A stretch of 64,000 nt of DNA. Origin: an uncultured Fidelibacterota bacterium (GTDB lineage Bacteria; Fidelibacterota; Marinisomatia; Marinisomatales; UBA1611). Position 1 is the stretch's first letter, and each line of letters starts with the position of its first letter. The translations under genes were made by a program, and so were the position numbers. This document shows, piece by piece, positions 11,565 through 41,114 of the stretch. The stretch is from assembly GCA_902611135.1 (NCBI GenBank), contig CACLYL010000001.1, forward strand, positions 13,141 to 77,140. The letters run 5' to 3'. The notes under the pieces were generated by a model. It ran no database searches. It was not told where the DNA came from and saw nothing but the letters and a program-made list of their open reading frames with translations.

Positions 11565-12208
11565 TGCGTAAGAGCATAATATATTATATTGACACCCATC
11601 TTTAAAGCAGCTTCTCTAATTGGCCAAGGATTTTTATGAACATTTGAGTCCTCCCAGCCATCACCTAAGTCTGATTCATACGTATAAAGAACAATCATTC
11701 TCTCTTTTTCAAATAATGCTAGTGCTTGAGCAGGTTTATTGTCATGTTCGTGTATTTTTGGCAAGCCACCAGGTATATTAAAGTATGATTTAAATATAGG
11801 ATGATCATCCGGTAGGCTAATGAACTTTTTACTAGGGAAAACCTTTTTCATTTCTCTTCTAAATGATTTATCCATCCCATAATTATCATCTGCGTGTAAA
11901 AAGCCTCCATTGAGTAAAGACGACCTTAATGCAATAACCTCTTTATTTGAAAGTTTAATGTTTCCATGTCCATTTAAATACATATATGGATATTGATTTA
12001 AATTTTCAGCAGTTAACTTAATTCTAACCTCATCATCATGAACAGACATAGGTGTATTTGATTTCACATAATTTAGAAGGTTAGGTAAACTGCTGGCATT
12101 ACTGTACCAGTCGCCGCCTCCACTGTAATGGATTCGTGCGATACTGAACGATTGAGCTGTAAGATTTACGAGTAAACCCAAACTTATTATGATACTTTTA
12201 ATGTTCAA
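11561..12208 (-). CDS. DUF4159-like secreted protein
   Basis: 215 aa with a signal peptide, followed by ARIHYSGGGDWYSNASSLPNLLNYV. This matches my recollection of the DUF4159 N-terminal motif. It overlaps the downstream giant gene by 4 nt. Confidence 0.6.
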   Translation of the reverse strand: MNIKSIIISLGLLVNLTAQSFSIARIHYSGGGDWYSNASSLPNLLNYVKSNTPMSVHDDEVRIKLTAENLNQYPYMYLNGHGNIKLSNKEVIALRSSLLNGGFLHADDNYGMDKSFRREMKKVFPSKKFISLPDDHPIFKSYFNIPGGLPKIHEHDNKPAQALALFEKERMIVLYTYESDLGDGWEDSNVHKNPWPIREAALKMGVNIIYYALTQ

Positions 12209-14171: not shown

Positions 14172-15391
14172 TGTTAAAAAAAATATCTTTGAATAGCACA
14201 ATTAGTAATAAATTTCTTTTATTATTGGTATTTTTAGGTTCTATATGTTCTCAATCAGAAAATCGTGACTATGATGAAGAGCTGCGTTATCAAAATCAGG
14301 CAATAAATGGTCTGAGAAAAGAAATTAATAGTTTAAGATTAAAAATTAAGAAAGCGGAATCTAAGGAGAATTCAGCAAAAAATAGAATATCTTCAATTGA
14401 TCAAGAATTAGCTCTTACAAATAAATTGATTCAATCTTTAAAACGTGAGGAAGCAAAAACTAGAAATACGATAGCAAGTTTGAAGGATAATATAACTTTC
14501 AATGAAAATGAACTTGAGAATTTAAAAGCTCGTTATGAGACTAGAATTAAAAATTCCTATTTAAATGGTAGGATTACAGATTTGGAGAGAGTTTTATCTT
14601 CAACGACATGGAGGCAAGCTGTTTATAGAGCTCAATATTTAAAAGTTATATCAGAAATAGAAAAAAAAATAACAAAGAAAATTGAGAAGCTTTTAATTAA
14701 AATAAGTCAGCAAAAAATAGAACTAGAGGTGACCTTAAGAGAAAATCTAAAACTTACTAGAGCAAAAGAAAAAGAAATTGATTCTTATAGGAATATGAGA
14801 ATTTCTAGACAAAAAGAATTAAACCGTATTCGATCTGATAAAAAAGCTTTGGCTAGTTATGTGGATGAAAAAGAAGCAGGAGTTATTCAGTTAGAAAAAA
14901 TTATAAAAAAAGTTTTAGAAGACAAAGCTCGGTTTGAGAGGGAAGCAAGAATTCGTGAGCAGCAATCAATATTGAAAACTAAAAGTTTTAAAGCACTGAG
15001 AGGTAAACTTCCTTGGCCTGCTGAAGGAAGAGTTATTACAAAATTTGGAAGACAATGGAATTCAAAATTAAAAACTACTACCGAAAATCCAGGTATTGAT
15101 ATAAAAGGACAACCGGGATCGGGCATAAAGGCTGTCATGGGTGGTGTTGTAACAACAATAACATATATAAGAGGTTATGGTACTACTATAATAATTGATA
15201 ATGGGGGAGGATTCTACACAGTATACAGTCATGTTACCAATATACAAACCAGTGTTGATAATCAAGTCCGAACCGGAGATGTCATTGCATATATGGGTGA
15301 CTCGGGCTCAATAAATGGTTCTAAGTTGCACTTTGAAATATGGGGTAAGGGTCAAAAGCTTGATCCAGAAAAATGGCTGACCAAGAGATAA
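14168..15391 (+). CDS. envC: EnvC-like murein hydrolase activator (coiled coil plus degenerate LytM/M23 domain)
   Basis: A signal peptide is followed by about 230 aa of coiled coil and a C-terminal M23 domain. In that domain the HxxxD His is Asn (ENPGIDI) and the first His of HxH is Lys (SKLHFEIW). This is the pattern of non-catalytic EnvC-type activators. Confidence 0.75.
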   Translation: MMLKKISLNSTISNKFLLLLVFLGSICSQSENRDYDEELRYQNQAINGLRKEINSLRLKIKKAESKENSAKNRISSIDQELALTNKLIQSLKREEAKTRNTIASLKDNITFNENELENLKARYETRIKNSYLNGRITDLERVLSSTTWRQAVYRAQYLKVISEIEKKITKKIEKLLIKISQQKIELEVTLRENLKLTRAKEKEIDSYRNMRISRQKELNRIRSDKKALASYVDEKEAGVIQLEKIIKKVLEDKARFEREARIREQQSILKTKSFKALRGKLPWPAEGRVITKFGRQWNSKLKTTTENPGIDIKGQPGSGIKAVMGGVVTTITYIRGYGTTIIIDNGGGFYTVYSHVTNIQTSVDNQVRTGDVIAYMGDSGSINGSKLHFEIWGKGQKLDPEKWLTKR

Positions 15392-16506
15392 AAAATTTAT
15401 ACTTTAGTCATGCAAAAGTATGGAGTTTGTTATCTAAAATTAACAAGTCCAAAAAAATTGGTTCAACTTATCTTTTTTCAGGTCCCCAAGGTTCTGGGAA
15501 AGAGGCTATTTCAATTAAATTTGCTCAGTTAATAAATTGTGAACAACAGTTAGAATATCCTTGTGATAGCTGTGCATCTTGTAAAAGATTTTCACGTTTA
15601 CAGCATGAAAACCTTAATATAATTCTACCTCTTCCAACACCAAATAATTCAAAAAATCCTAAAAAGTTCATAGATAAAAAAATAACAGAAATTCTTTCGA
15701 ATGAAATATCATTTAAAGCTAAGGACCTATTTCATAAAATTAAAATTCCTAGAGCGAATAGGATTCTTATTCAATCTATTAGAAATTTAAGATCAAATAT
15801 TTATTTGAAAAGCCTAACTTCAGGCAGAAAGATTGTTATCTTTTTTGATGCTCATATTTTATCTAGAGGTCAAGGAGAATCTGCCAATTCATTACTAAAA
15901 TTGCTAGAAGAACCTCCAAACAGAACAACATTTATTTTGGTCACAGATAAACCAAATTCTCTTTTTTCTACTATTCGTTCAAGATGTCTAGAAGTTAAAA
16001 TTCAAAAGTTTGATCAAAAATTTATAATTAAATGGTTGAAATTGAAAAATATTAAAGAATCTCATTTATTATTAATTGCAGGGTTAAGTGATGGTAATAT
16101 TCACCATGCAGAATTCTTAATTTCTCAGTCTTTTGAAAAGTTTTTGTCATTATTAGGTGAAACCATTAACATTATCACAAACAAAAATTCAGAAGAATGG
16201 AGAACATTTGTTTTGCATTACTCAAAAATGATCACGCAGGATATTGAACTTTTTTATTTTCACTTTTCTATTCTTAAAATATGGTTTCAAAGTTTGAACA
16301 GATTAAAAATGAATTTAGTGCATTTACTTCATGAGACAGCCTTGAAAAAAGGCATGGATAATGTATATAAAAAGTTTCCTAATGCTGATTTTTTTGAAAT
16401 TGTTTTTGAAATAGAAAGAACTAGAGTAGCTCCAATGAGTCAAATTTATATGCCTCTAGAGTTGACAAATTTTCTCATTAGGGTAAAAAAGCATTTAGAA
16501 AAATGA
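15373..16506 (+). CDS. holB: DNA polymerase III subunit delta'
   Basis: Walker-A-like YLFSGPQGSGKEAISIKFAQLINCE, a Cys-rich zinc module CDSCASCKRF, and TIRSRC (sensor motif). Confidence 0.75.
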   Translation: MADQEIKNLYFSHAKVWSLLSKINKSKKIGSTYLFSGPQGSGKEAISIKFAQLINCEQQLEYPCDSCASCKRFSRLQHENLNIILPLPTPNNSKNPKKFIDKKITEILSNEISFKAKDLFHKIKIPRANRILIQSIRNLRSNIYLKSLTSGRKIVIFFDAHILSRGQGESANSLLKLLEEPPNRTTFILVTDKPNSLFSTIRSRCLEVKIQKFDQKFIIKWLKLKNIKESHLLLIAGLSDGNIHHAEFLISQSFEKFLSLLGETINIITNKNSEEWRTFVLHYSKMITQDIELFYFHFSILKIWFQSLNRLKMNLVHLLHETALKKGMDNVYKKFPNADFFEIVFEIERTRVAPMSQIYMPLELTNFLIRVKKHLEK

Positions 16507-17996
16507 GCAAGAATTTTTACGTAACTACACCGATTTACTATGTTAATGATAAGCCTCATATAGGCCATGCTTATACTACAATATTAGCAGATGTGCTTAA
16601 CAGATTTTATCAAATTAATGGCTATGATACATTTTTTTTAACTGGATTGGATGAGCATGGGCAAAAAGTTCAAGAAGCAGCAAAGAAAAAGAATATTGAG
16701 CCATTAGAGCAATGCGATGAAATGGTTCCTCAATTTAAAAATCTTTGGGAAAAGTTGCATATTTCAAACAATGACTTTATTAGAACTACAGAGCCAAGAC
16801 ATGTTTCTGTCGTGCAAGATATTTTGACTAAAGTTTTTAATAAAGAAGATATTTATAAAGATGAATATGAGGGTTTATATTCAGTTTCAGAAGAAAGATT
16901 TATTACTGAAAAAGAAGCTGAAACTGGAAACTTTCGTGATATAAAAAAAATCAAAGAAAAAAATTACTTTTTTAGAATGAGTAAATATCAAAATAAGTTA
17001 ATCAAGTACATAGAATCTAATCCAAATTTCATTCAACCTGAACATCGTAAAAATGAAATTATTGGTTTTTTAGATAAGCCCTTAAATGACCTTTGCATTT
17101 CAAGGCCTAAATCAAGGTTAAGCTGGGGAATTGAATTGCCTTTTGATAAAGAATATGTTACTTATGTCTGGTTTGACGCTCTAATTAATTATTTAACAGG
17201 GATTGGTTTTAAAAAAGACAAAAAACTCTTTGAAAAATACTGGCCTGCCTCTTATCAATTAATTGGGAAAGATATTTTGACAACTCATGCAATCTATTGG
17301 CCAACTATGTTAATGTCATTAGGAATAGAATTACCAAAAACTATATTTGCTCATGGTTGGTGGCTTATTAGTGAATCTAAAATGAGTAAGTCTATTGGGA
17401 ATGTGATAGACCCAATGGAATTAATTAATGAACACGGGGCAGATCCAGTGAGATATTATCTTATGAGAGAAATGGTTTTAGGACAAGATTCAAACTTTAC
17501 GGTTGAATCGTTTAAAAATAGGTATAATAGCGATTTGGCAAATGACTTTGGTAATTTATTAAGCCGAGTATCAACATTAATGAAAAAAAACTTTGAGGGA
17601 AAAATTCCTTTGCCAAATAAAATGACCAAAATGGAAAAAGAAATTCAACTAAAAAGTAAAAACCTAATAGAGAATGTAAGGGGGAAAGTGAAAAATATGC
17701 GCATTAATGAAGCTATCGAGGATATTATGCAATTCATTCGAGGCATTAATAAGTATGTTGAAGTAAGCGCACCTTGGAAAATGGTTAAGGTCGATAAAGA
17801 GAATGCCGGAACTGTGCTTTTTACCGCTGGTGAAGCCCTGAGAATTAGTGCCTTATTGTTAGAGCCTATAATGCCTAATAGAACATCAGAATTATTAGCA
17901 GCTTTTGATGCAAAAGGAACTTCTTTAAATTGGGGAGGCTTAGTCCCTGGTACTATCCTAAAGGATCACGATCCTTTATTCCCCAGATTAAAATGA
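16503..17996 (+). CDS. metG: methionine--tRNA ligase (short form)
   Basis: Class I HIGH motif (KPHIGHAYTT) and KMSKS motif (SKMSKSIGN). 497 aa. Confidence 0.95.
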   Translation: MSKNFYVTTPIYYVNDKPHIGHAYTTILADVLNRFYQINGYDTFFLTGLDEHGQKVQEAAKKKNIEPLEQCDEMVPQFKNLWEKLHISNNDFIRTTEPRHVSVVQDILTKVFNKEDIYKDEYEGLYSVSEERFITEKEAETGNFRDIKKIKEKNYFFRMSKYQNKLIKYIESNPNFIQPEHRKNEIIGFLDKPLNDLCISRPKSRLSWGIELPFDKEYVTYVWFDALINYLTGIGFKKDKKLFEKYWPASYQLIGKDILTTHAIYWPTMLMSLGIELPKTIFAHGWWLISESKMSKSIGNVIDPMELINEHGADPVRYYLMREMVLGQDSNFTVESFKNRYNSDLANDFGNLLSRVSTLMKKNFEGKIPLPNKMTKMEKEIQLKSKNLIENVRGKVKNMRINEAIEDIMQFIRGINKYVEVSAPWKMVKVDKENAGTVLFTAGEALRISALLLEPIMPNRTSELLAAFDAKGTSLNWGGLVPGTILKDHDPLFPRLK

Positions 17997-22128: not shown

Positions 22129-22773
22129 ATGAGGGATATAGCAAAATACATTGATCATACTAATTTGAGACCCTATTTAACAAAGAAAGATATTCAAAGG
22201 ATTTGCAAGGAAGCAAGTCAATATAATTTTGCATCGGTGTGTATTAATCCAATTCATGTTCCTTCAGCCACAAAATATTTAAAAGATTCTTTTTCGGAAG
22301 TAAGTACGGTTATCGCGTTTCCATTGGGTGCAATTTCAACTGAAATAAAATATGCGGAAGCCATGGATGCAATTGATCAGGGAGCAGAAGAATTAGATAT
22401 GGTGATAAATATTGGATACTTAAAGGAGGGAAAGAACAATCAACTAGCAGATGAAATCACAAAAATAGTTAAAGCATCAGAAGATATATGCTTAAAAGTA
22501 ATTATTGAAACCTGTTTGCTGAATACAGAAGAAAAAATTCGTATTTCGAAAAGTGTAAAGGAATCAGGAGCTGATTATATAAAAACCTCTACAGGTTTTT
22601 CACTAAAAGGAGCCGATGCTAAGGATGTTAAAATTATTAGATAAACACTTGGTGATAGTACAGGAATTAAAGCAAGTGGAGGCATAAAATCTTTATTAGA
22701 TTTAAATAAAATGCTAAATGCGGGCGTAAACAGAATAGGCACCAGTTCAGGGATAATTATATTAAATGAATGA
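22129..22773 (+). pseudogene. deoC: deoxyribose-phosphate aldolase interrupted by one in-frame TAA
   Basis: The ORF 22129-22644 (DHTNLRP..., DYIKTSTGF containing the Schiff-base Lys) stops at TAA 22642-22644. The same frame continues for 42 codons: TLGDSTGIKASGGIKSLLDLNKMLNAGVNRIGTSSGIIILNE, ending at TGA 22771-22773. That is the conserved DERA C-terminus. The stop sits where homologues read DVKLMRETVG. Confidence 0.85.
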
Positions 22774-24172
22774 AAAAGTTCTAATAAAACGTAAAGCAGA
22801 GGTAGAATTAAAGATCGAATCACTTGCTTATGGAGGGATGGGAATTGCAAAAAAGGAAAACTTTGTAATTTTTGTGAAAAATGCAATCCCAGGTCAAACT
22901 GTAATTGCAAGAATTTATAAAAAGAAAAAAGGATATGCTGAAGCCAGAGCCTTAAAGATTTTAGTTGAATCTCCAAATGTTGTAAAACCTAAGTGTAATC
23001 ATTTTTACATTTGTAGTAAAATTCAAAATCTATCCTACAAAGAGCAATTGAAAGAAAAAGGGAATCAAGTTATAGATGCATTTCAAAGATTAGGAGGATT
23101 TAAAGATTTTAAGTTAAATAATGTTGTAAAGGGGAATCCAATTTTTAATTACCGCAATAAAATGGAGTTTACATTTTCACCTCACAGGTGGGTTTTAGAT
23201 TCAGAACCAGAAGATGCGAGTAAATCTTTTGCACTTGGGCTGCATATTCCAGGAAGGTATGATAAAATACTTGATATAAATAACTGTTACATACAGCCAG
23301 AAATAGGGAATAAAATTTTAAAGGTTGCGAGAGAGGTCTGTTTATCAAACCCTAAACTAAAGCCATATGATCCAAAGACGCACATTGGGTTTTTACGTTA
23401 TTTAACGCTTAGATATGGATTGAAAACAGGCCAACTCATGGTGAATATCGTAACTGCGTATGATGATATCAATAAACTTTCACCATTAATTGATAGTTTA
23501 CTAGATAAGTTCCCTGAGATTACATCTATGGTAAATAATGTTAATACCAGAAAAGCAGATATTGCGTTTGGAGAATTTGAGAATCTCTTATTTGGCAAGC
23601 CATATATTGAAGAAAAATTAGGAGAATTAACGTTTGAAATTTCAGCAAATTCATTCTTTCAAACGAATACTTTACAAGGAGAATTATTGTACAATGAAGT
23701 ATTAAAGGCAGCTAATTTGAAAGGGGATGAAATTATTTTTGACTTGTATTGCGGGGCAGGAAGTATCGCTCTTTTCTTAGCACATAAAGCCAAAGAAGTA
23801 TATGGTTTTGAAATTATTAGATCTTCTTTGGAGAATGCAGAGAAAAATGCAGAGAAAAATGAAATTAAAAACACATCTTTCTTAAAAGCAAATCTAGATA
23901 CCTTCTTTAAATCAGGCCAACTTCCCCGTAAAGTCCCGAAGCCAAATGTAGTAATCGTCGATCCACCAAGAGCGGGAATGCATCCAGATATGGCTAATTA
24001 TTTATATAAATTCAAAGCTGAAAAAATTGTATATGTGTCTTGTAACCCTACTACCCAAGCAAGAGATGCTAAGTTATTAGTAGAAAAAGGTTATAAAATT
24101 AAAAGTGCTGTTATGGTTGATATGTTTCCGCATACGCCACATATTGAAACGGTGGTTTTATTTTCTAAGTAG
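22766..24172 (+). CDS. rlmD: 23S rRNA (uracil-C5)-methyltransferase, RlmD/RumA family (TRAM plus SAM methyltransferase domains)
   Basis: N-terminal TRAM-like AYGGMGIAK. SAM motif DLYCGAGSIALFLA, then VDPPRAGM and VSCNPTT. Only 3 of the 4 RumA Fe-S cysteines are recognisable. Confidence 0.85.
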   Translation: MNEKVLIKRKAEVELKIESLAYGGMGIAKKENFVIFVKNAIPGQTVIARIYKKKKGYAEARALKILVESPNVVKPKCNHFYICSKIQNLSYKEQLKEKGNQVIDAFQRLGGFKDFKLNNVVKGNPIFNYRNKMEFTFSPHRWVLDSEPEDASKSFALGLHIPGRYDKILDINNCYIQPEIGNKILKVAREVCLSNPKLKPYDPKTHIGFLRYLTLRYGLKTGQLMVNIVTAYDDINKLSPLIDSLLDKFPEITSMVNNVNTRKADIAFGEFENLLFGKPYIEEKLGELTFEISANSFFQTNTLQGELLYNEVLKAANLKGDEIIFDLYCGAGSIALFLAHKAKEVYGFEIIRSSLENAEKNAEKNEIKNTSFLKANLDTFFKSGQLPRKVPKPNVVIVDPPRAGMHPDMANYLYKFKAEKIVYVSCNPTTQARDAKLLVEKGYKIKSAVMVDMFPHTPHIETVVLFSK

Positions 24173-24898
24173 TGCTTTTGAAAATCTAGATTCCGAAATT
24201 TCAGAATCGAACTCAATATCAATTATAATCCATTCTGTGCCTTTACTATTTCTTTTGAGTTCATCTTTAAATCTATAATGGAATGGGAACCATCTACCCT
24301 TTACACTTTTGATATTATTCATTGAGATCGTTTTCAATAGTTTTCCACTCTTTGCGTATCGCTCTTCTTTGATAGGCAAAAAATATTCTTTATCAATCCA
24401 GGCTCTTCTTTTAGGATAAGAGAGTCCTTTAACTTTAGCTTCCATAAAAATCACCCAATGATCACGATCATTTATAAAGGCAGATTTTTCTAGGGTTAAA
24501 TGATAAATTTCACGTATTGGTCGAGTTTCCATCATGTCTTTATAGGACATATCGGAACCATTAATGGATTGTCTTAACATATGCCCAGAAATTTGAATTA
24601 TTCGATCTGTTTGTGGAGAATAGGTCCATAATTTATCTTTTAATTTTAACATTTTAGTTCCCGCTTCTCTAGCGGGCGATAAATTTTCCGTAAATGCCTT
24701 TTCAAAACCCGTACTCCAGCTTTTTGATTTTATTGTTCGACTTTTTCTTCGACCGTGAATAATCATTTCACTTATTAAAACACGGTTATTTGAGTTCAGA
24801 TTTTTATCCATTTCACTAACGATATCATAAACAGATAATTTATTTGATTCTCCAAAGATGCATGATAAAGATGTTAGAAAAACAAAAAATTTATTCAT
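24158..24898 (-). CDS. LolA-like outer membrane lipoprotein-sorting protein family
   Basis: 246 aa with a signal peptide. Motifs are LWTYSPQTDRIIQIS, INGSDMSYKDM and RAWIDKEYFLPIKEERY. These match my recollection of the LolA_like family that accompanies FtsX-type ABC transporters. Confidence 0.7.
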   Translation of the reverse strand: MNKFFVFLTSLSCIFGESNKLSVYDIVSEMDKNLNSNNRVLISEMIIHGRRKSRTIKSKSWSTGFEKAFTENLSPAREAGTKMLKLKDKLWTYSPQTDRIIQISGHMLRQSINGSDMSYKDMMETRPIREIYHLTLEKSAFINDRDHWVIFMEAKVKGLSYPKRRAWIDKEYFLPIKEERYAKSGKLLKTISMNNIKSVKGRWFPFHYRFKDELKRNSKGTEWIIIDIEFDSEISESRFSKALLRK

Positions 24899-26178
24899 GT
24901 TTCTAACTCTTTAAATAACTGTGCCATTTCCCTGCGATAAATTGCAAGTCCTGCTAGCATAGTTCCTAGCACTGTTGCTACAAGTCCAGGTAGTAAACCA
25001 ACATAAAATAAATCAGGAGTGACTTTTGAATAAAAAGTATTTGGCATAATCATATCTGTCAAAGCCATTTCTTCAAGTGCTTCAGCATAACTAATTCCAT
25101 TTTCTTGAAAGTAATAGGTAATACTTATTCCAAGCCCAGTCCCAAGAACTGTTCCTGTTAACCCTATTATAATCGCCTCAGTTATCATAGATCTATAGAC
25201 TTGTCCTTTTGATTCTCCCATAGCAAGTCGTAAACCAATTTCTCCATAGCGCCTTAAGCCATTCATTAGTCCCATATTCCAAAGAACTATCATGACAATC
25301 ACCAAGAAAATTCCTCCAATTACTGCTAATGCAGCATTACTAAAATCAACCATGGTTCCCATCTGGTTTGTATCCCTTAATGCGATCATAATCGGAGAAT
25401 AAATATCAGAGCTATCATTGTTGGTTCTGTTAAAATTTGATCGAATTTCTATTGCACTGTTATCATTATAAAATAAATCATGAGTAAATCCTAAAATTTC
25501 TGTTGCTGCACCTTGCATATCAAGCGCTTCCTGAGCCCCAGAAATATCTAATAAGATCATTTGCTTATCGGTTTGACCTTTATTCAAATTAAAAACACCA
25601 GAGATATTAAAGTTATAGGTTGTAAAAGCATTATCCATTGTCGACCCTATAAAAGTTGCTTCTTGTCCAGTGGAAACCTCTAGTTTTTTAGCTAGCTTTG
25701 AACTAATCAGGATTTCATTTGAAGACTTTGGATGATTTCCATCAATGATGATTTTATTTAGCTCCCACAATTCGGTTTGTCTTGAGTCGTTTGAAAAGAA
25801 ATCAATTCCTATTGCCATAACTGGGCTCTGAGATCGAGTCTCTTTATTGTCATTTGGAATATCGATCAGGCCTCCAAAATTTATCCTAGGACTCCAGAAA
25901 TAATTAGGATAATTTCTTTTTAAATCAGAAATCCTGTCCTCAACATCCAGTAATGCCAGATCGAGAGGGAGCATCTGTATTTCTTCTTTATATGCTTTAG
26001 TTACCACCTTCTGATATCCTGCAATGATAACAGCTGTATCCAAAAAAACACTATTAAGCATACCCCTCATAAAGCCCAAAGCAAAAATAACAATAGCAAC
26101 AGTTGTTGTAATAATAATAGTGGGGAATAGACTTCGAGTCTTATCTCTGATCAGTCCTTTTGCTAAAAATTTTATCAT
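24895..26178 (-). CDS. ABC transporter permease, MacB/FtsX-like
   Basis: 427 aa with an N-terminal TM, a large periplasmic domain and a C-terminal FtsX 3-TM bundle (RRYGEIGLRLAMGESKGQV). Overlaps both neighbours by 4 nt. Confidence 0.8.
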   Translation of the reverse strand: MIKFLAKGLIRDKTRSLFPTIIITTTVAIVIFALGFMRGMLNSVFLDTAVIIAGYQKVVTKAYKEEIQMLPLDLALLDVEDRISDLKRNYPNYFWSPRINFGGLIDIPNDNKETRSQSPVMAIGIDFFSNDSRQTELWELNKIIIDGNHPKSSNEILISSKLAKKLEVSTGQEATFIGSTMDNAFTTYNFNISGVFNLNKGQTDKQMILLDISGAQEALDMQGAATEILGFTHDLFYNDNSAIEIRSNFNRTNNDSSDIYSPIMIALRDTNQMGTMVDFSNAALAVIGGIFLVIVMIVLWNMGLMNGLRRYGEIGLRLAMGESKGQVYRSMITEAIIIGLTGTVLGTGLGISITYYFQENGISYAEALEEMALTDMIMPNTFYSKVTPDLFYVGLLPGLVATVLGTMLAGLAIYRREMAQLFKELET

Positions 26179-27377
26179 GTCGTTATTTTTCCACGAAGAG
26201 CATCTGTAGGGTTCATATTGCTAATTCTCCGTGAAGGGAAATAACTGACAAGGAGCACTACAATTCCAATGAGTATTGTTGTTGTTAAAATCAAACCAAT
26301 TGAGTACACAGGGATAAGGCGCTTTGCAATCATAAGTCCCATCTCACTATAATCCATTGGGAGAGGGATTCCCTTTTCTGCGAAATACCATAAAATAGGG
26401 CCAAAAAAAATAACAGTCATAATCGTAGCTAAAAATGAGTTGAGCGCACCCTCTAAGGTAAATAAACCAACTACTCGAGATCTTGTCATTCCTAAAGCCA
26501 TCAAAGTTCCAATTTCTTTACCTCTTCGGAAAATAGAAAGAACTTGAGCATTAAAAATTCCCATTGCTGTTAAGCAAAGAAGAATGAAAAATAATATTTG
26601 GTTTCCAGGTTTATCCGCTTCGATTGCTGCCTCAATATCAGAAATTAAATAATTAACATCCCTGTGCAACCAGTCTCCAGAGCTTTTTACTTTTTCAATG
26701 CCCTCATTATAAGTCACGTATGTTGCTTCATTTTCCATATTAAGCATATTCTGGGCTTTTTTAATTGGTATCCAAATAGTTCCAATATCTAATTTGAAAT
26801 TTTCTGTATTCATTATGTGCATAACAGTACCTTCCATTGCATCATATGCTTTTTCAGAGTCAAGCCAGCGGATTATAAAGGTATCCCCTTCTTTTAATTG
26901 TGTTTTTTTAGCCATTTCAGAGCCAATTAAAACGGGAATTTCTATTTCATCATGATTAGCGAGCATCTTGGTTGGGTTAACTTTATCCGTATTGTTTCCT
27001 TCCATATTTATTATGGACTGCTCAGGAGGAATGCCCTTCATAGTGACGGGCATCATTCTTCCATTTGGATATATTGATGCTTGACTAACTAGTATCGGGA
27101 AAGCCTCCTTTAAGTTAATTAACTTCTTCAGTGCGATAGGTATTTTCGAATGAGATTTTTCAAATGACATAGGATCAATGGGGTCATAATTAGGATGCCA
27201 ATAAGATCCTCCTGCTATTTCAGTGTCTATGGTTGTTTGTTTGGCATATTGTCTCATCCCATCATACATCCCTGAAATAAAAAGGATAACAAAAAATGAT
27301 ATTGATGTAACAAAGACATTCAAAAAAGTTCGCAGTCTGGCACCGATTAGATTTTTTAGTGCAATTTTAAAAAGCAT
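26175..27377 (-). CDS. ABC transporter permease, MacB/FtsX-like
   Basis: 400 aa. N-terminal MLFKIALKNLIGARLRTFL is typical of the family. C-terminal FtsX domain (RRGKEIGTLMALGMTRSRV). Confidence 0.8.
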   Translation of the reverse strand: MLFKIALKNLIGARLRTFLNVFVTSISFFVILFISGMYDGMRQYAKQTTIDTEIAGGSYWHPNYDPIDPMSFEKSHSKIPIALKKLINLKEAFPILVSQASIYPNGRMMPVTMKGIPPEQSIINMEGNNTDKVNPTKMLANHDEIEIPVLIGSEMAKKTQLKEGDTFIIRWLDSEKAYDAMEGTVMHIMNTENFKLDIGTIWIPIKKAQNMLNMENEATYVTYNEGIEKVKSSGDWLHRDVNYLISDIEAAIEADKPGNQILFFILLCLTAMGIFNAQVLSIFRRGKEIGTLMALGMTRSRVVGLFTLEGALNSFLATIMTVIFFGPILWYFAEKGIPLPMDYSEMGLMIAKRLIPVYSIGLILTTTILIGIVVLLVSYFPSRRISNMNPTDALRGKITT

Positions 27378-27383
27378 GGTATT

Positions 27384-28088
27384 TTATTTTGATTTTTTAA
27401 TCTTTTCATCTTTATTTATCATACCATCCTCAAGGTGTATTATACGTTTGAGGTATCCCATGATCTTTTCATCGTGAGTTGCAAAGACAAAAGAGGTTGA
27501 TATTTCTTTGTTTAACTTTGTCAAGATCTTCATAATATGATGTGAGTTTTCAGCATCAAGGTTTGCAGTTGGTTCATCTGCCAGCACTAAATCAGGTTGA
27601 TGTACAATCGCTCTTGCAATTGCCGTTCGTTGGCATTGCCCTCCACTTAATGTGTTTGGCCGAGAATCTCTCTTGTCAGAAAGCCCAACCCACTCAATTG
27701 CTTGATTTACTTTCTTTTGACGATCTAATGGACTTACTTTATTTAAAATAAGAGGTAATTCAACATTTTCATAAACCGAATAGACAGGTAATAAATTATA
27801 ACTCTGAAAAATAAAGCCCATATGTTTTCGACGAAGAAGAGCTCTTTCATTATGAGAAGTATTATTCAGAGAGTGATCGAGTACACTTACCGTACCTTCT
27901 GAAGCGGAATCAAGTCCACCGATTACATTAAGAAGTGTTGTTTTACCAGAACCAGATGGTCCAACGAGGCCAGTAAATTCACCAGTATTCAATGTTAGAT
28001 TAATATCTTTCAATGCAGTGAAAAAATTATTCCCAATAGGATAACGTTTGACTAAACTTTTTATAGAGATCACAATATGCTTTTTCAT
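27384..28088 (-). CDS. ABC transporter ATP-binding protein (LolD/MacB-type)
   Basis: Walker A GPSGSGKTT, signature LSGGQCQR and Walker B LVLADEPT. Confidence 0.9.
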   Translation of the reverse strand: MKKHIVISIKSLVKRYPIGNNFFTALKDINLTLNTGEFTGLVGPSGSGKTTLLNVIGGLDSASEGTVSVLDHSLNNTSHNERALLRRKHMGFIFQSYNLLPVYSVYENVELPLILNKVSPLDRQKKVNQAIEWVGLSDKRDSRPNTLSGGQCQRTAIARAIVHQPDLVLADEPTANLDAENSHHIMKILTKLNKEISTSFVFATHDEKIMGYLKRIIHLEDGMINKDEKIKKSK

Positions 28089-28099
28089 TTATTAAACCC

Positions 28100-29203
28100 T
28101 CAATAATTATAAATTAACATTATTTTAGCAGTTGAGCCAAAACTTTCAAGTCCAGATGACACAATAACTGGTAAATATTCATCGCGTTTTGGATTTATAG
28201 AAAAAATATAATTTAGGCTGAAATTATCATATGCTGAGCTCCAGCGTAAAAAATTATAACTTTTTTTCTCATTTAGACTTACTTGTTTTATTATACTTAA
28301 TTGATGTGTCATGCCAAATGGAATAGCAGCTAGGATTGCACTGTAGTTCTGATTTGATTTAATTGGTCTTTGTTGTTGAATGGACATGAATTCAGTCATT
28401 AAGTATATTCCATTGATGATGGGTAGGGTGTAATCCAATCCTAAAGTGGCTATTATTTGTTTTAGATTACTAGATGAGATAGCAGAACCTTCATTCCAAA
28501 ATCCAAAAAAACCATCATATCTATAATCTAATCCCCACCTAGTAATCTCATCATTATGGTAAGATATTGCCCATTCTCCTGAATAGTGAGATATTTCAGA
28601 TCGAAAGCCAAAAGACAAATTGTTGAGTTCATTTAATATTGACCATGACCATATTGAGATTGTATTCATCGGGAACCATTTTAATCTGAATGCTCTCACA
28701 CCACTAATTTGTCCAGTGGGATCAGTAACATCAATATAATCAAACCAGGAAAGGTTCCGTAATATTTGTGTTGGCCCAAAAGTTATTTTTTGTAAACCTA
28801 ATCTAGCTTCAAGTTTTTCATTAGAGTATCTTATCCAATACCTGTAAGGTATTCCGTGTCTAGTGTCATATTCTATGCTTTTTTTGAATACGCTAACTTT
28901 AATTGTATCAAGATTTACCATCGATCTTCCAGAATAGACATGGTCGACTATATGGGCATATTCAAAATCAATTAATTGGTCATCAGTTAATTTATTAAAA
29001 ACAGAAAAGGTTGCTATTGTTCCAAATTTTGATTCGAAATGAGAATCATTTTCTGGGATATCATTACCTGTTAAAATGCTATACCATAACTGTCCTTTTA
29101 AAGAATAATTTTGAGAATAAAGAATATTGCTAAATAGAAGTATTGAAATAATATATGTTAAACGATATTTTGCTTTATTAAAAGTTTGTTTCAAAAAAAA
29201 CAT
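28100..29203 (-). CDS. predicted outer-membrane beta-barrel protein, unknown family
   Basis: 367 aa with a signal peptide. Alternating aromatic/polar strands run throughout. The C-terminus is an aromatic beta-signal-like KIMLIYNY. Confidence 0.5.
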   Translation of the reverse strand: MFFLKQTFNKAKYRLTYIISILLFSNILYSQNYSLKGQLWYSILTGNDIPENDSHFESKFGTIATFSVFNKLTDDQLIDFEYAHIVDHVYSGRSMVNLDTIKVSVFKKSIEYDTRHGIPYRYWIRYSNEKLEARLGLQKITFGPTQILRNLSWFDYIDVTDPTGQISGVRAFRLKWFPMNTISIWSWSILNELNNLSFGFRSEISHYSGEWAISYHNDEITRWGLDYRYDGFFGFWNEGSAISSSNLKQIIATLGLDYTLPIINGIYLMTEFMSIQQQRPIKSNQNYSAILAAIPFGMTHQLSIIKQVSLNEKKSYNFLRWSSAYDNFSLNYIFSINPKRDEYLPVIVSSGLESFGSTAKIMLIYNY

Positions 29204-29235
29204 TTAAAATCTGATTATGTGAAACCTTTTTTGTC

Positions 29236-31470
29236 TTAATCCCTTACAGTTTTAGAAAGTACAATGCATAATGCAGGAAGCAAAGTTAAATCACAAATTA
29301 AAGCCAATGCAATCATGAGCGCTGAGAAGAGTCCAAATTGGAAAGTAGGAAGAAAAGCAGATAAAGTTAATACTAAAAAACCTGAAACTAATACCGTGGT
29401 AGTTATCATCAGTGCCGATCCTGTATTTATGATTGTGTTGCGTAAAGCCTCTATAATAGGTAGCCCTCTTGATAATTCCTTTCTATATCGTAATAAAAAA
29501 TGAAGTGAATCATCAACGGCGATACCTAATGCTACAGAAAATGTCATGGCTGTGGGTACACGGATGGGGATATTAAACCAAGCCAATAATCCCATCATTG
29601 TAAAGATGGGTATTAGATTAGTAATTAAATTTATAAACAAAATCGACCCTTTTCGAAACATGATGGTTAACACTAAGCAAATAAAAAATAGTGCAATGCC
29701 AAGTGAGCTTGATAGAGACTTAACTAAATAAGTATTTGTCTTTAAAGCGACAACTGTTGTTCCCGTATACTGAACAGTTAAGTTTGAAGGGAAACTTTTA
29801 GCTAAAGAATCAAGTTTGAGATAAATTTTTTCCATTTGATTTGATGTTTTATTTTCAATCAGTCCAGAAATTCTTAATGTATTTTGTTTGATGTTTATAA
29901 GTTTATTTTTGCTATTTTGATTGTCTTTAATAATTAATTTAATCATCTCATCTTCATTATTTCCTTTATTTGCTTGGAACCTTTTTGAAGATTCAATTAG
30001 GTTGTTTATTGATAAAAATCGACTATTTTTTAATTCAGATTCGAGTAGGGTTTGTGTCCTTTTAAGATAAGGAAGATATTCTATATAGTTAATATTACCA
30101 TTATTAGATGAGTCAGGTTTAATTTGAAATAAAACTTCAAAGGGAAGAACGCCACCAAAGTACTTTTCTGTAAACTTTAAATCTTGATATAGTTGATTAT
30201 TCGGTCTTAAATCATCTAGAAGAGATGCATCAGTAGAAATTTCCACTATTTTAGATATAAATATTGCTGATATGATACTCGGTATAAAAACAAACCACCA
30301 TGGATTAGCAATGATTTTATCTGACAAAATACTTAAAAACTTGTTGAAAGGTTTATAGGATTTATAATTAAAGCCTTTCATTGCAAGAAGCCCTGATGGA
30401 ACCGTTAAAATTGAAACTAACCAAGCCATCATAATACCAATTGAGACTTCCATCCCAAATTCTCTTATAATCTTTATTGAAGTGGTAGTCAAAGCAAGAA
30501 AGCCAATCGATGTAGTTAAACTTGTAATAAAAATTACTTTTGACATCTCTTTGAGGGTTTTTAACATAATCTCTTCAGAGCTTTTATTTAATTTAGTCAA
30601 GTTTTCCTTAAATCGAGCTTGAATGTGTATTGCATCAGCAACACCGATTATAAAAATTAAATTTGGAACAATGTATGAAATAATATTAATCTCAAGATTA
30701 AATAGGCCCATAAAACCGAGTAGCCATATTGCTGTAATAATTACTGTGAGGATTGGGAGGAATACTTGTACCCAATTTCTAAATAAAAACCCTAAAACAC
30801 ATAAAAGAATTACAAGTACAAATGGGACAAAAATAAAATTATCCCTTAACATTAATAAAACAAACTCTGTTCTTAGTACTGTAACTCCCGATAGAACCCA
30901 TTGTATTTCTGAGTCTTTTAGAATGTTTTTGACTTTTTTTATCAGTTGAGTTCGATCACTATGATTATTGGCAAGGTCGTTTAAGGATATTATTATTGCA
31001 CCGAAGTCCAAGTTTTCAGATAAGATTCTATTCCCAATTGTGGGATCTTTCTGTATGTACCTTAAAGCATTATTTAATCTAGTGTTATTCCAATTTGGAC
31101 CCATGAAATCACCAATCCATGCATTGGAATCGATATCACTTAAATTAAACAAGGACACAACGGTATTTACCTCATTAAACTCTTCTAATTGGTATATTAT
31201 ATCGTCAAGCTTTTTGTATAATTCTTGAGATTGAAAATCTTTGGGTTTGTAAATCAACGTGATGATGTTGTCTTCCCTACCAAAATTGCTTTTAAAACTT
31301 TGATATTCTCTTGCGCTTAAATCATATTCTGAGAAAAGATCTTCAACGGAAAAGTCAAGTTTTAAAGAAGGTATAAAAGTAGCCCAAAAAGTTGTTACAA
31401 GTGCTAGTATCAACAACGTCTTTTTTGGGGAATAAATTACTGTTTCAAAGATTTTATGGATCATTTTCAT
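29236..31470 (-). CDS. MMPL/RND-superfamily exporter (COG1033-type, two 6-TM bundles)
   Basis: 744 aa. Two repeated halves each have one TM, a periplasmic domain and a 5-TM cluster (sterol-sensing-like topology). The motif GIAVDDSLHFL is typical of the MMPL/RND proton-relay region. Confidence 0.8.
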   Translation of the reverse strand: MKMIHKIFETVIYSPKKTLLILALVTTFWATFIPSLKLDFSVEDLFSEYDLSAREYQSFKSNFGREDNIITLIYKPKDFQSQELYKKLDDIIYQLEEFNEVNTVVSLFNLSDIDSNAWIGDFMGPNWNNTRLNNALRYIQKDPTIGNRILSENLDFGAIIISLNDLANNHSDRTQLIKKVKNILKDSEIQWVLSGVTVLRTEFVLLMLRDNFIFVPFVLVILLCVLGFLFRNWVQVFLPILTVIITAIWLLGFMGLFNLEINIISYIVPNLIFIIGVADAIHIQARFKENLTKLNKSSEEIMLKTLKEMSKVIFITSLTTSIGFLALTTTSIKIIREFGMEVSIGIMMAWLVSILTVPSGLLAMKGFNYKSYKPFNKFLSILSDKIIANPWWFVFIPSIISAIFISKIVEISTDASLLDDLRPNNQLYQDLKFTEKYFGGVLPFEVLFQIKPDSSNNGNINYIEYLPYLKRTQTLLESELKNSRFLSINNLIESSKRFQANKGNNEDEMIKLIIKDNQNSKNKLINIKQNTLRISGLIENKTSNQMEKIYLKLDSLAKSFPSNLTVQYTGTTVVALKTNTYLVKSLSSSLGIALFFICLVLTIMFRKGSILFINLITNLIPIFTMMGLLAWFNIPIRVPTAMTFSVALGIAVDDSLHFLLRYRKELSRGLPIIEALRNTIINTGSALMITTTVLVSGFLVLTLSAFLPTFQFGLFSALMIALALICDLTLLPALCIVLSKTVRD

Positions 31471-31700
31471 TGATTAAAAATTAATGATTTACCAATTTAT
31501 TAATTCTAATACCGTAACTCTTAAATAAAGAAAAATAATATATGACATTCTTTTGATATTGGATTTGTTCTAAAATGGTAGTCCCATTAAAAGATATTTT
31601 AATGTTTAAATAAGTAATCTTTAAAGTGAAATAGTTTAATAATTATAGTAAAATTAAGAGCCTATTTTAGATCATTGTGCATTAAAATTTCTAGTATTTC

Positions 31701-34337
31701 ATGAAAAACACACCTTTAGATAAAAGATATAAACCTTCCAAGATAGAAGACAAATGGTACCAGCACTGGATGGAAAAGAAATATTTTAAGGCAGATGAAC
31801 ACTCAAAAAAAGAACCTTTTACTATTGTAATCCCTCCGCCTAATGTGACGGGAATTTTACATTTAGGCCATGTTTTAAATAATACAATTCAAGATGTTTT
31901 AATTCGTAAAGCTCGAATGGAAGGTAAAGAAGCATGCTGGATTCCTGGTACTGACCATGCTTCTATTTCAACCGAATCTAAAGTAGTCGAAATGCTAAAA
32001 ATTAATGGTATTAATAAAAAAGATTTAAATCGAGATGAATTTTTAAAATATGCGATGGATTGGAAGAATGAATATGGTGGCATTATCATCAAGCAATTAA
32101 AAAAGTTAGGTTGCTCATGCGATTGGGATCGTGAAACGTTTACAATGGATGAAGGCTATTCAAAAGCAGTTCTAACGGCGTTCGTTAATCTATATAAAAA
32201 AGGAATAATTTATAGAGGAAATCGACTAGTTAACTGGTGCCCTGTATCTCAGTCTGCCATTAGCGATGAGGAAGTTATTTATCGCGAAATCAAAGGGAAA
32301 CTCTGGTACTTTAAATATCCTATAAAAGGCTTAAAAGAATTTATAGTTGTTGCTACTACTAGGCCAGAAACAATGCTTGGAGATTCCGCAGTCGCAATTA
32401 ATCCAGGGGATAAACGATTTAAACATTTAATTGGGGAATCCCTTATTCTACCATTAGTAGGTAAAGAGATTCCAATTATATCTGATGACTTTGTTGATCC
32501 AGAATTTGGGACGGGTTGCGTAAAAGTTACTCCTGCACATGATCCAAATGACTTTGTTATTGGAAAGAGACACAATCTTTTATTTACTAATATTATGAAA
32601 GAGGATGCTTCATTGAATCTAAATGTACCTAAAAAATACCAAGGCTTAACTCGAGAAAAAGCAAGAGAAGTAATTTTACTGGATATTGAAAATTTAGGTT
32701 TGTTAGAGAAGGTAGAAGATTATACTCATCAAGTTGGCTTTTCTGAGAGAGGGAACGTGCCAATAGAATTTTATATGTCCAAACAATGGTTTATGAAGAT
32801 GTCTGATCTATCTAAACCGGCTTTAGAAGCAGTTAATAGAGGGAAAGTTAAATTTTATCCAGAACATTGGAAAAAAACATATAATCATTGGATGAATAAT
32901 ATTAAAGATTGGTGTATAAGTAGACAATTATGGTGGGGTCATCGATTGCCTGTTTGGTACAATAAAAAGGATCCCAAATTAATCCATGTATCAGTAGAAG
33001 GCCCTGAAAATCCAAATAATTGGTTTCAAGATCCAGATGTTTTGGATACTTGGGCAAGTTCGTGGCTTTGGCCTATTGGTGTTCATAATTGGCCAGAATC
33101 AAATAAAAGTTTAGATAAGTTTTATCCCACGAATTCCTTAGTTACTGGGCCTGACATTATATTTTTCTGGGTAGCTAGAATGATCATGTCTGGTTATGAA
33201 TTTAAAAACGAATTACCATTTAAAGATGTTTATTTCACATCCATTTTAAGAGATGAAACTGGGAGAAAATTAAGTAAATCATTGGGTAATTCACCTGATC
33301 CGCTTGACCTATTTGCGGAATATGGAACAGATGCTGTAAGGTTTGGAACTATGTTAATGGCTCCCCAAGGTCTAGATGTTTTATTTTCTAAAGAACGTCT
33401 AGAAATTGGCAGAAATTTTATGAATAAACTTTGGAATGCTTGTCGTTTTGTTCAAATCAATCTTAATGAAACATTCAACACCGAAATAAACTTAAATAAA
33501 GAAGAATTAGGAATTGCAGAGAAATGGATTTTAGGCCAATTATCAAAAACAGTTTTTGCATTTAATAGACATCTAGATCGTTTTCATTTTAATGAAGCAG
33601 CAAAAGTAATTTATGAATTTACCTGGAACGATTTTTGCGATTGGTATATTGAAATAATAAAACTAAGTTTTTCTAACGGTAATGAATTACAAAAAAATAT
33701 TGCGGCATCAGTTGCTATTAAATGTATTCGTACCGTAATTACAATTTTACATCCTTATGCACCATTTATTACTGAAGAATTATGGAGCTGTTTTAAATTA
33801 GATTCTAAACCAGATTTAATAGTCAGCAATTGGATAGGCAAGGAAATTTCATATGATTTTCCTGTTGAAAAAAAAGAAATGTCTTTCTTACAATCAATGA
33901 TTACCTCTATTAGAAGCATACGGAGTAGAATGAATATTCCTTACTCAAAAAAGATAAATTTGAGTATAAGGTGTGATTTAAAAAACGAAAATTTTATCAA
34001 GTCTCAAAAAGCATTGTTAGAGGCCTTTGTTAATACTGATAATATTGAAATTAGTGACAAAATTGACAGGCCATATCAATCTTCTGCGATTGTTTTGGGA
34101 GAGGTTGAAATTTTCATTCCTTTAGATAAACTAGTTGATTTAAATATTGAAAAGTCAAGAATGGGGAAAAGAATTAAAGATATTGAACGAATACTCAGTT
34201 CAATTAATAGTAAATTATCAAATGAAAATTTTATAAAAAGAGCCCCTAGGACTGTTGTTGAAAAAGAGAAATCAAACTTTGATAAATTGACTAAAGAAAT
34301 GAAAAAGATCAATCACAACCTTAATATGTTATCATAA
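31701..34337 (+). CDS. valS: valine--tRNA ligase
   Basis: HIGH-type PPNVTGILHLGH, KMSKS-type KLSKSLGN and a C-terminal coiled-coil arm. 878 aa. Confidence 0.95.
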   Translation: MKNTPLDKRYKPSKIEDKWYQHWMEKKYFKADEHSKKEPFTIVIPPPNVTGILHLGHVLNNTIQDVLIRKARMEGKEACWIPGTDHASISTESKVVEMLKINGINKKDLNRDEFLKYAMDWKNEYGGIIIKQLKKLGCSCDWDRETFTMDEGYSKAVLTAFVNLYKKGIIYRGNRLVNWCPVSQSAISDEEVIYREIKGKLWYFKYPIKGLKEFIVVATTRPETMLGDSAVAINPGDKRFKHLIGESLILPLVGKEIPIISDDFVDPEFGTGCVKVTPAHDPNDFVIGKRHNLLFTNIMKEDASLNLNVPKKYQGLTREKAREVILLDIENLGLLEKVEDYTHQVGFSERGNVPIEFYMSKQWFMKMSDLSKPALEAVNRGKVKFYPEHWKKTYNHWMNNIKDWCISRQLWWGHRLPVWYNKKDPKLIHVSVEGPENPNNWFQDPDVLDTWASSWLWPIGVHNWPESNKSLDKFYPTNSLVTGPDIIFFWVARMIMSGYEFKNELPFKDVYFTSILRDETGRKLSKSLGNSPDPLDLFAEYGTDAVRFGTMLMAPQGLDVLFSKERLEIGRNFMNKLWNACRFVQINLNETFNTEINLNKEELGIAEKWILGQLSKTVFAFNRHLDRFHFNEAAKVIYEFTWNDFCDWYIEIIKLSFSNGNELQKNIAASVAIKCIRTVITILHPYAPFITEELWSCFKLDSKPDLIVSNWIGKEISYDFPVEKKEMSFLQSMITSIRSIRSRMNIPYSKKINLSIRCDLKNENFIKSQKALLEAFVNTDNIEISDKIDRPYQSSAIVLGEVEIFIPLDKLVDLNIEKSRMGKRIKDIERILSSINSKLSNENFIKRAPRTVVEKEKSNFDKLTKEMKKINHNLNMLS

Positions 34338-41100: not shown

Positions 41101-41114
41101 TTGCTTTTAATGAT

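Follow-up and report, generated by a model that had tools for sequence, protein, structure and literature searches.

Gene organization of the locus at 24158-31470

A stretch of 64,000 nucleotides from an uncultured Fidelibacterota bacterium (contig CACLYL010000001.1, positions 13,141 to 77,140; hereafter the window) carries six packed open reading frames (ORFs) on the minus strand between 24158 and 31470, all of which are real genes, with orthologues in dozens of genomes. The best homologues came from metagenome-assembled genomes (MAGs) of Candidatus Marinimicrobia or Neomarinimicrobiota (SAR406). The conserved system is a cassette of the last five of these genes, beginning with a predicted outer-membrane beta-barrel and ending with a LolA-like protein, while the first gene, for an MMPL transporter, is an optional add-on.

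In the direction of transcription, the accessory gene (29236-31470) encodes a 744-aa MMPL transporter of the HAE3-like resistance-nodulation-division (RND) type. A spacer of 32 nt (29204-29235) separates it from the first gene of the five-gene core (28100-29203), which specifies a 367-aa protein predicted to form an 18-stranded porin-like barrel in the outer membrane. Then follow, after 11 and 6 nt, the genes for an ATP-binding cassette (ABC) ATPase with a nucleotide-binding domain of the LolD/DevA/FtsE/MacB type (234 aa, 27384-28088) and an FtsX-type permease (permease 1; 400 aa, 26175-27377, with a periplasmic domain of about 220 aa). Two overlaps of 4 nt connect the latter to a second FtsX-type permease, its presumed heterodimer partner (permease 2; 427 aa, 24895-26178), and this in turn to a LolA-like putative carrier (246 aa, 24158-24898). 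The gene order, coordinates and spacings given in a preliminary description of the locus, made from the sequence letters and their ORFs, proved exact on the ORF map.

The six-gene unit is transcribed divergently from valS (31701-34337, plus strand) across an AT-rich spacer of 230 nt (31471-31700), which is presumed to be the promoter region because it is the sole sizeable non-coding stretch adjoining the cluster. The sigma-70-like matches in it are only weak (9/12; minus strand, 31693-31664 and 31625-31596), and the scans for sigma-70 promoters and for terminators gave background levels of matches in this DNA of about 30% G+C. For the Bacteroidetes-type -7 promoter motif TAnnTTTG, the window contains 108 matches where 102 are expected, which is no enrichment, and a match at 29281-29288 in the 3' end of the MMPL gene is at chance level. 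The preliminary description had named the 32-nt gap at 29204-29235 as the place where a terminator or a promoter would separate the MMPL gene from the rest. No terminator-like hairpin or T-run was seen in this gap, and the promoter scan stayed at background, so that co-transcription of all six genes is the simplest reading of the sequence.

At the other end, the LolA-like gene converges with a TRAM/tRNA-U5-methyltransferase (trmA-like) gene (22766-24172, plus strand), with an overlap of 15 nt. Within the final 17 or so codons of the LolA-like gene, at 24179-24208 on the minus strand, there is a hairpin resembling a terminator (GATTCTGAAATTTCGGAATC, with a T-rich tail after it), which might serve as a shared or bidirectional terminator of the two convergent genes. 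The frequency of terminator-like matches in the region, six found against 4.1 expected, is that of the background.

Five of the six protein identities claimed beforehand were supported by profile searches, that is, all except the barrel. The MMPL protein matched PF03176 with 118.5 bits (threshold 20.5), and its best RND model in NCBIfam was HAE3 (TIGR00921) with 218.8 bits, below the cutoff of 351.9, indicating an HAE3-like protein outside the curated subfamily. Its two intramembrane motifs, GVADAIH (D279, H282) and GIAVDDSLH (D653, D654, H657), are pseudo-symmetric copies of GxxxD(D)xxH within hydrophobic stretches of the two transmembrane bundles, and are 95-100% conserved among 20 orthologues. 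This conservation is consistent with a working proton relay.

The ABC ATPase matched PF00005 (128.7 bits) and retains intact Walker A (GPSGSGKT), signature (LSGGQ), Walker B-Glu (LVLADEPT) and H-loop (FATHD) motifs. The FtsX domain PF02687 was detected in both permeases (53.3 and 62 bits for permeases 1 and 2, threshold 25.5), each of which has one N-terminal and three C-terminal hydrophobic segments. With this FtsX domain, the four-segment transmembrane layout and the separate nucleotide-binding subunit, the ATPase and the two permeases belong to the type VII (MacB/FtsX-fold) ABC systems. In such systems, including MacB, LolCDE, FtsEX and YbbAP, ATP drives a motion of the periplasmic domains and the substrate is not carried across the bilayer. 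The two permeases are 24% identical to each other, and their periplasmic domains are divergent, with about 200 residues aligned to MacB_PCD (PF12704) at 20.9 and 24.1 bits against a gathering threshold of 27. Remote similarity was found to structures of MacB, YtrF and LolE, permease 2 giving remote matches with MacB 5gko and YtrF 9o9x.

The LolA-like protein gave a strong match with PF17131 (165.6 bits against a gathering threshold of 30, E 1.3e-48, 183 of 184 profile positions), a family once named LolA_like and now TP_0789-like. DUF1329 was matched weakly (E 3.1e-4; 20.6 bits, cutoff 23.1), and no canonical LolA match was obtained in Pfam at E<=0.01. Relatives in the PDB are 3bk5, 3buu, 9tp6 and 4z48. 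The orthologues carry a type-I signal peptide, and no cysteine occurs within the first 35 residues in 38 of 43, so that with a signal peptide and no lipobox the protein should be soluble and periplasmic rather than a lipoprotein.

An unannotated barrel family and its conserved gene neighborhood

The barrel assignment was the one that profile searches failed to support, and it thereby fails the refutation test set for it in the preliminary description. No Pfam or NCBIfam model matched the window protein, two distant homologues or six family representatives at E<=0.01, and no PDB sequence was matched by a 44-sequence family profile at E<=1. Homologues that have a name in the source all bear the label 'hypothetical protein', and a precomputed Pfam domain is absent from every one of those listed. 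The N-terminus resembles a signal peptide, with a predicted helix at residues 2-29. Support for the assignment came instead from the predicted fold. An AlphaFold2 model based on an alignment of 143 sequences spanning two deep branches has 18 strands, with a mean pLDDT of 78.2 and a pTM of 0.70; an alignment of Marinimicrobia sequences only had given a pLDDT of 55 and was discarded, the gain to 78 coming with the addition of the distant Aminicenantes branch. When the model was compared with the PDB by Foldseek, 184 matches were obtained at E<=1e-3, headed by the 18-stranded barrels Campylobacter jejuni MOMP, AlgE and OccD/OprD and including 16-stranded general porins (probability 1.0, TM-score 0.5-0.57, identity 7-12%). 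Neither BamA nor TamA appeared among the top 50. On the model, the 367-aa protein would have a generic porin-like outer-membrane barrel fold, outside any named family.

The family is large. An exhaustive profile search collected 985 clusters at 50% identity, 538 of them at E<=1e-30, and nearly all members are 350-400 aa long. A few entries of about 620-645 aa (P0391, P0405 and P0411) carry unrelated N-terminal extensions, among them a PlsY-like glycerol-3-phosphate acyltransferase, SPOR domains and Pro/Ser-rich low complexity. These extensions were considered as informative domain fusions and dropped as evidence, for they are heterogeneous and the extended entries are probably merged gene calls.

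Conservation within the barrel is focused on one long loop and on strands 4-5. The loop between strands 5 and 6 (residues 139-168) holds 15 of the 66 conserved positions, and invariant residues R121, W123, R125, E132 and R134 lie on the adjoining strands; many more invariant charged residues are found on other strands. From the strand parity of the model we infer that this loop would correspond to L3, the constriction loop of classical porins. The orthologues show identities of 26-61% for the barrel, 51-86% for the ABC ATPase, 37-87% for the permeases, 45-85% for the LolA-like protein and 56-62% for the MMPL protein. The median identity to the window protein is 42% for the barrel, 75% for the ABC ATPase, 64-66% for the permeases and 65% for the LolA-like protein. 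The barrel evolves much more rapidly than the proteins encoded with it, as would be expected of a protein exposed at the surface.

Relatives of the barrel were scanned with one genome per species, yielding 78 loci, in which the six window proteins were located by tblastn. In 44 of the 45 loci long enough to judge, the five-gene core (barrel, ABC ATPase, permease 1, permease 2, LolA-like) is present in the same order and on the same strand, with a median span of 4983 bp, and the single exception lacks only a detectable ABC match (L033). These loci come from MAGs labelled Marinimicrobia, Aminicenantes, Calditrichia, Desulfaltia and 'Eubacteriales', and the order is kept even at a barrel identity of 26-30%. 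All five genes were also found on a Margulisiibacteriota contig, and the first three, up to the contig end, on an Elusimicrobiota contig; no MMPL gene is linked on either. The MMPL gene lies directly upstream of the barrel gene in only 19 of 70 evaluable loci, all of them from Marinimicrobia. The preliminary description had divided the locus into an MMPL-barrel pair and an ABC-LolA-like set fused in one operon. This division did not hold: the barrel, linked to the ABC and LolA-like genes in 44/45 loci, belongs to that set, and MMPL is the accessory component.

The genes flanking the cassette vary by lineage and are mostly housekeeping genes. Neither the window nor the loci examined show a regulator linked to the cassette, and for these reasons the cassette is considered to be self-contained. 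Clustering of the flanking ORFs detected no further universally conserved partner, only lineage-specific neighbors. A conserved same-strand pair lies upstream of the barrel gene with a gap of about 120 nt (L004:3592-5468, plus strand, and 19-22 other Marinimicrobia loci). The pair, seen in many Marinimicrobia without the linked MMPL gene, encodes a 361-aa endonuclease/exonuclease/phosphatase (EEP; Exo_endo_phos) protein and a 264-aa signal-peptide protein without Pfam match. No homologue of either was found in the window, and the pair could be an alternative accessory module or just lineage synteny. As to the source labels, a typical Marinimicrobia cassette with 43% barrel identity was found in an entry labelled 'Candidatus Woesearchaeota archaeon' (L023, NYYQ01000002.1), and three entries labelled 'uncultured Eubacteriales' (L073, L076 and L081) carry an Aminicenantes/Acidobacteriota-type cassette including the outer-membrane barrel. 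These archaeal and Eubacteriales labels are probably errors of binning or taxonomy assignment.

The history of the MMPL linkage was followed on a tree of the barrel, ABC ATPase and permease 1. The window belongs to a clade in which every member has the MMPL gene, while a second clade is mixed, with sister genomes differing in the linkage. The MMPL gene is an old accessory, yet a labile one, within part of one phylum. The MMPL protein might be functionally unrelated to the cassette, the adjacency being a conserved neighborhood in part of one phylum and only the five genes forming a system, in which case the notion of two energizers serving one system would be wrong. Such an independence concerns an axis separate from the role of the cassette itself. 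The low frequency of the linkage (19/70) and its absence from the other phyla agree with it, as do the repeated losses in the mixed clade (L064 compared with L028; in L045 the MMPL gene is 8 kb away). The spacing between the two genes, which ranges in relatives from overlap to about 123 nt, also leaves room for separate promoters in those with the wider gaps. The widest, about 866 nt, was observed in the closest relative in the genome collection (L006:2271-3161; 61% barrel identity), a locus that contains ambiguous bases. Against independence, the gap in the window is 32 nt without a terminator, many relatives have the two genes overlapping or no more than 25 nt apart, and the adjacency persists even where MMPL proteins are only 56-62% identical. 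Moreover, Proteobacteria and Bacteroidota each have, independently, an RND/MMPL transporter paired with a LolA-like protein and a barrel, and in Treponema the gene of an RND pump adjoins a LolA-like gene. We consider it somewhat unlikely that the MMPL protein is functionally unrelated to the cassette.

A different role for the ABC complex is suggested by the type VII members that do not transport, such as FtsEX and YbbAP-TesA. The complex could be a mechanotransducer that uses ATP to activate or position the LolA-like protein, as in FtsEX-EnvC or YbbAP-TesA, the barrel then being an unrelated porin. The permeases are indeed as close to YtrF as to LolE or MacB. The barrel is, however, the most tightly linked partner in the cassette across phyla, which an activator confined to the periplasm leaves unexplained, and the LolA-like fold has no catalytic domain. 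This role is regarded as very improbable.

Proposed route of transport and related systems

Beside the observed gene identities, topology features, catalytic and proton-relay motifs, predicted barrel fold and gene order, the transfer steps, the direction of transport, the class of cargo and a physical or functional coupling of MMPL are matters of interpretation. In the reading that we favor, with a probability of roughly one half, the core would be an ATP-driven cassette taking an amphiphilic cargo out of the inner membrane and passing it to the LolA-like carrier and on to the barrel, with MMPL feeding the same route. The ABC ATPase dimer would power a heterodimer of the two FtsX/MacB-type permeases, whose periplasmic domains would, in the manner of LolCDE and other type VII systems, pull a membrane-embedded amphiphile out of the inner membrane's outer leaflet. 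The candidate cargo may be a lipid, a glycolipid, a lipidated molecule or a lipoprotein. The soluble LolA-like protein would receive the cargo, shield its hydrophobic part across the periplasm and hand it to the 18-stranded barrel, where L3 and the charged residues of the lumen might recognize the polar part. Through the barrel the cargo would then get into the outer membrane or across it. In the clade to which the window belongs, the proton-coupled HAE3-like MMPL protein, presumably co-transcribed from upstream, would supply this carrier and barrel too, whether as a second extractor or as a flippase, for the same or a related cargo. The general idea of the preliminary description, a movement of hydrophobic cargo across the envelope, is supported to this extent. 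An uptake role was set aside as unlikely, because transporters of the type VII ABC and RND kinds are not known to act in any way but as exporters or extractors.

Several observations weigh against this route. MMPL adjacency is absent in 51 of the 70 loci and in all loci outside Marinimicrobia, and the coupling is therefore not obligatory and could be mere neighborhood. No biosynthetic genes are consistently linked to the cassette, and we know of no ligand demonstrated for a PF17131 protein. The lumen position of L3 was taken from strand parity and not from coordinates, and the pLDDT of this loop is only 52-72. A charged lumen with a porin-like L3 would also fit a channel for soluble solutes, not a lipid acceptor.

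On two contigs the genes around the cassette are of note. On the Margulisiibacteriota contig (L085:1-7681 and 14363-17068) it lies amid polysaccharide or glycolipid genes, namely those for Wzz/GNVR, Bac_transf, several GT4 glycosyltransferases and a radical SAM protein, and on the Elusimicrobiota contig (L084:460-7813) it adjoins genes for GT5, an epimerase and CDP-OH_P_transf. These neighbors are a possible hint, from sequence, at a glycolipid cargo, and the pattern is absent from the Marinimicrobia and Aminicenantes loci.

The closest mechanistic model is LolCDE-LolA. As in that system, a separate ATPase and two paralogous FtsX-type permeases, each with four transmembrane segments and a large periplasmic domain, are encoded in one operon with a soluble LolA-fold carrier that has a signal peptide. 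The best NCBIfam matches were LolD for the ATPase (TIGR02211) and lolCE for permease 1 (TIGR02212), with lolCE second to ADOP for permease 2. Membership in the Lol family nevertheless fails, as all three scores are far below the equivalog cutoffs (226.6 bits against 307.75 for the ATPase; 48.1 and 32.6 bits against 362.45 for permeases 1 and 2), the carrier is a PF17131 protein and not a canonical LolA, and there is no LolB-like lipoprotein, the 18-stranded barrel being the first gene instead. An alternative or additional Lol-like system for lipoprotein sorting could still be envisaged, in which lipoproteins would be extracted by the permeases and taken on by the LolA-like protein as their carrier, with the barrel standing in for LolB as an acceptor or acting as a translocon for export to the surface. 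The parallel in the parts list, the soluble carrier and the presence of the cassette in several non-proteobacterial diderm phyla are in line with it, and the same idea has been proposed computationally for Borrelia BBJ25-28. It is weakened by the divergence from the Lol models just described, by relatives of the carrier family that pair with RND pumps for non-protein cargo, and by the charged porin-like lumen, which is not an obvious lipoprotein insertase. Furthermore, Bacteroidota possess both canonical LolA and LolB, which also weakens the premise of the preliminary description that LolB is largely restricted to some proteobacterial classes. Lipoprotein sorting is accordingly judged quite unlikely as the role of the cassette. 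The additional LolA2 and LolB2 copies dedicated to flexirubin loci in Bacteroidota show that LolA-fold proteins can be specialized for lipid cargo.

No description of the five-gene cassette was found in the searchable literature. [quoted passage not shown] It was proposed to extract a non-polar ligand by the use of ATP and to deliver it to the outer membrane (PMC13078400). The two systems share an outer-membrane barrel, a type VII ABC transporter and a LolA-like 'OM lipoprotein-sorting protein' in one conserved cluster without an adaptor or TolC. They differ in that the barrel of the cassette is similar to porins, AlgE and OprD, with 18 predicted strands, and not to Omp85/BamA, and in that its permeases are two paralogues, presumably a heterodimer, in place of a homodimer. 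In addition, the cassette has no TPR genes, is chromosomal among housekeeping genes and has MMPL attached in one clade.

The association of an HAE3-type RND transporter with a LolA-superfamily periplasmic protein and an outer-membrane protein is known from proteobacterial cassettes, AmeABCD and Sama_1588-1591, in which the latter two are DUF1329 and DUF1302 proteins and a BNR protein is also encoded. Cofitness among the DUF1302, DUF1329, BNR and COG1033 genes gives genetic support for a joint export function. This precedent, which the preliminary description had named, was confirmed from the literature. The carrier of the window shares with it the weak DUF1329 match, which stays below the cutoff, but the barrel has no DUF1302 match, no BNR/COG4447 gene is present in the cluster, and the invariant energizer of the cassette is the ABC transporter, with the RND protein optional. 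In Treponema pallidum, TP0789, from which the carrier family takes its name, adjoins the RND gene TP0790, judging by locus number.

Operons joining ABC, MMPL, LolA-like and porin genes are also found, by annotation, within the FCB group. The paralogous operons of Porphyromonas gingivalis (PG1175-PG1181, of which PG1178-81 form one transcriptional unit) and Prevotella intermedia contain ABC genes, an MMPL gene, a gene for a LolA-like protein ('outer membrane lipoprotein-sorting') as well as a porin or hypothetical gene. They are TetR-linked and are induced by iron or heme limitation, 13- to 136-fold in P. gingivalis and about 40- to 220-fold in Prevotella. Unlike the cassette, they are regulated by TetR, the annotation of their ABC genes goes no further than ATP-binding, and an FtsX permease pair has not been reported. 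In mycobacteria, the translocation of phthiocerol dimycocerosate (PDIM) to the cell surface requires MmpL7, DrrABC and LppX, a genetic precedent for two inner-membrane machines, RND/MMPL and ABC, acting with a carrier on one lipid route. The differences are that DrrABC is a type V ABC exporter and not of the MacB type, that LppX is lipid-anchored, that no barrel is assigned in an envelope of another architecture, and that MmpL7 lacks the proton relay kept by the cassette-linked MMPL. The fold of LppX is LolA/LolB-like. The view that two energizers in one operon are unusual, as had been suggested for the window, was thus overstated, because operons with ABC, MMPL, LolA-like and porin genes are already known, though uncharacterized.

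Some of these systems point toward efflux. The ABC transporter, MMPL or both might expel small apolar or amphiphilic molecules (xenobiotics, terpenes, porphyrins or metabolites) into the periplasm for detoxification, with the LolA-like protein as an adaptor or chaperone and the barrel as the exit duct. AmeABCD makes cells tolerant to monoterpenes and has a part in the efflux of Nile Red. The P. gingivalis and Prevotella operons are TetR-linked and respond to iron or heme limitation, like stress efflux systems, and the lumen of the barrel is polar and charged, with an L3 loop of porin type that is conserved. In contrast, neither a TetR nor any other regulator is linked to the cassette in the window or the loci examined, and its housekeeping surroundings and high phylum-wide conservation (medians of 75% for the ABC ATPase and 64-66% for the permeases) look constitutive, unlike those of an accessory resistance trait. 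The window, moreover, already encodes a classical OEP-HlyD-MacB system. This tripartite efflux operon (44544-50327, plus strand) consists of genes for an OEP/TolC-like protein (447 aa), an HlyD-family adaptor (407 aa), an ABC ATPase (228 aa) and two MacB-type permeases (402 and 415 aa). MacAB-TolC pumps resemble the cassette in having a type VII ABC transporter with the FtsX fold and a periplasmic core domain, directed to or through the outer membrane, but no HlyD-type membrane-fusion adaptor or OEP/TolC gene is found in the cassette, either in the window or in related loci with gene tables; it has the soluble LolA-fold protein and the porin-like barrel instead. The MacB_PCD and MacB equivalog matches of the efflux operon are strong (about 176-277 bits), its MacB scores of about 176-186 bits are roughly ten-fold above those of the cassette (14-24 bits), and the operon is a useful internal contrast to the adaptor-less cassette. 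Efflux of hydrophobic compounds is therefore an unlikely explanation, though one with a better claim than lipoprotein sorting, and delivery of an amphiphilic cargo by way of carrier and barrel is preferred.

Surrounding genes and meaning of the cassette

A canonical cluster for lipopolysaccharide (LPS) and 3-deoxy-D-manno-octulosonate (Kdo) functions occupies 50486-56752 on the plus strand and contains a kdsB-like cytidylyltransferase gene, the CTP synthase gene, kdsA (DAHP_synth_1), a kdsC-like HAD phosphatase gene, lptC, an ABC ATPase gene in the lptB position and then rpoN. No separate lptA ORF was noted between lptC and lptB. The presence of kdsB, kdsA, kdsC, lptC and lptB in the window indicates that the organism is an LPS-containing diderm. 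LPS transport was rejected as the role of the cassette, since the window has its own kdsA-kdsC-lptC-lptB genes and the cassette gave no Lpt-family matches.

Two more clusters were noted. At 5061-12208 on the minus strand lie genes for a DUF4159 protein (215 aa), a DUF4175 protein (1134 aa), a TPR protein (620 aa) and a 416-aa protein without Pfam match; this cluster is apparently envelope-associated and unrelated to the cassette. At 38152-42164 on the plus strand, 7-10 kb from the cassette, a gene for a 982-aa protein with a TMEM260-like protein O-mannosyltransferase domain (E 3.9e-67) is followed by that of a GT2 glycosyltransferase, and a function in protein or lipid glycosylation is possible.

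The transit of hydrophobic molecules through the periplasm and the outer membrane is largely unknown outside Proteobacteria, and the outer-membrane acceptor is its least understood part. A conserved multi-phylum cassette around an unannotated barrel family is in this respect of more interest than the presence of two energizers in one operon. The cassette joins a Lol/MacB-like extractor and a LolA-like carrier to a conserved, dedicated barrel family that is still unannotated, and it occurs in five or six phyla at least; the abundant ocean clade SAR406 is among its carriers. The boldest interpretation, for the present a speculative one with rather long odds, is that it could represent an undescribed LolB-independent machine for delivery to the outer membrane. 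The barrel would then serve as the acceptor or translocon of a lipid, a glycolipid or a surface lipoprotein, and in Marinimicrobia MMPL, driven by the proton motive force and connected to the same carrier, would be a second energy source for the route. Such a machine would span deep-branching or uncultured diderms, namely Marinimicrobia, Aminicenantes/Acidobacteriota, Calditrichota, Elusimicrobiota and Margulisiibacteriota. Should the barrel indeed be the acceptor, the cassette would define a new module for delivery to the outer membrane and would offer a way into the envelope biogenesis of uncultured lineages. Whether one periplasmic carrier can serve both ABC and RND extractors is a question for which the optional MMPL linkage provides a natural test. 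In annotation resources, the barrel family merits a family definition and the cassette merits a name.

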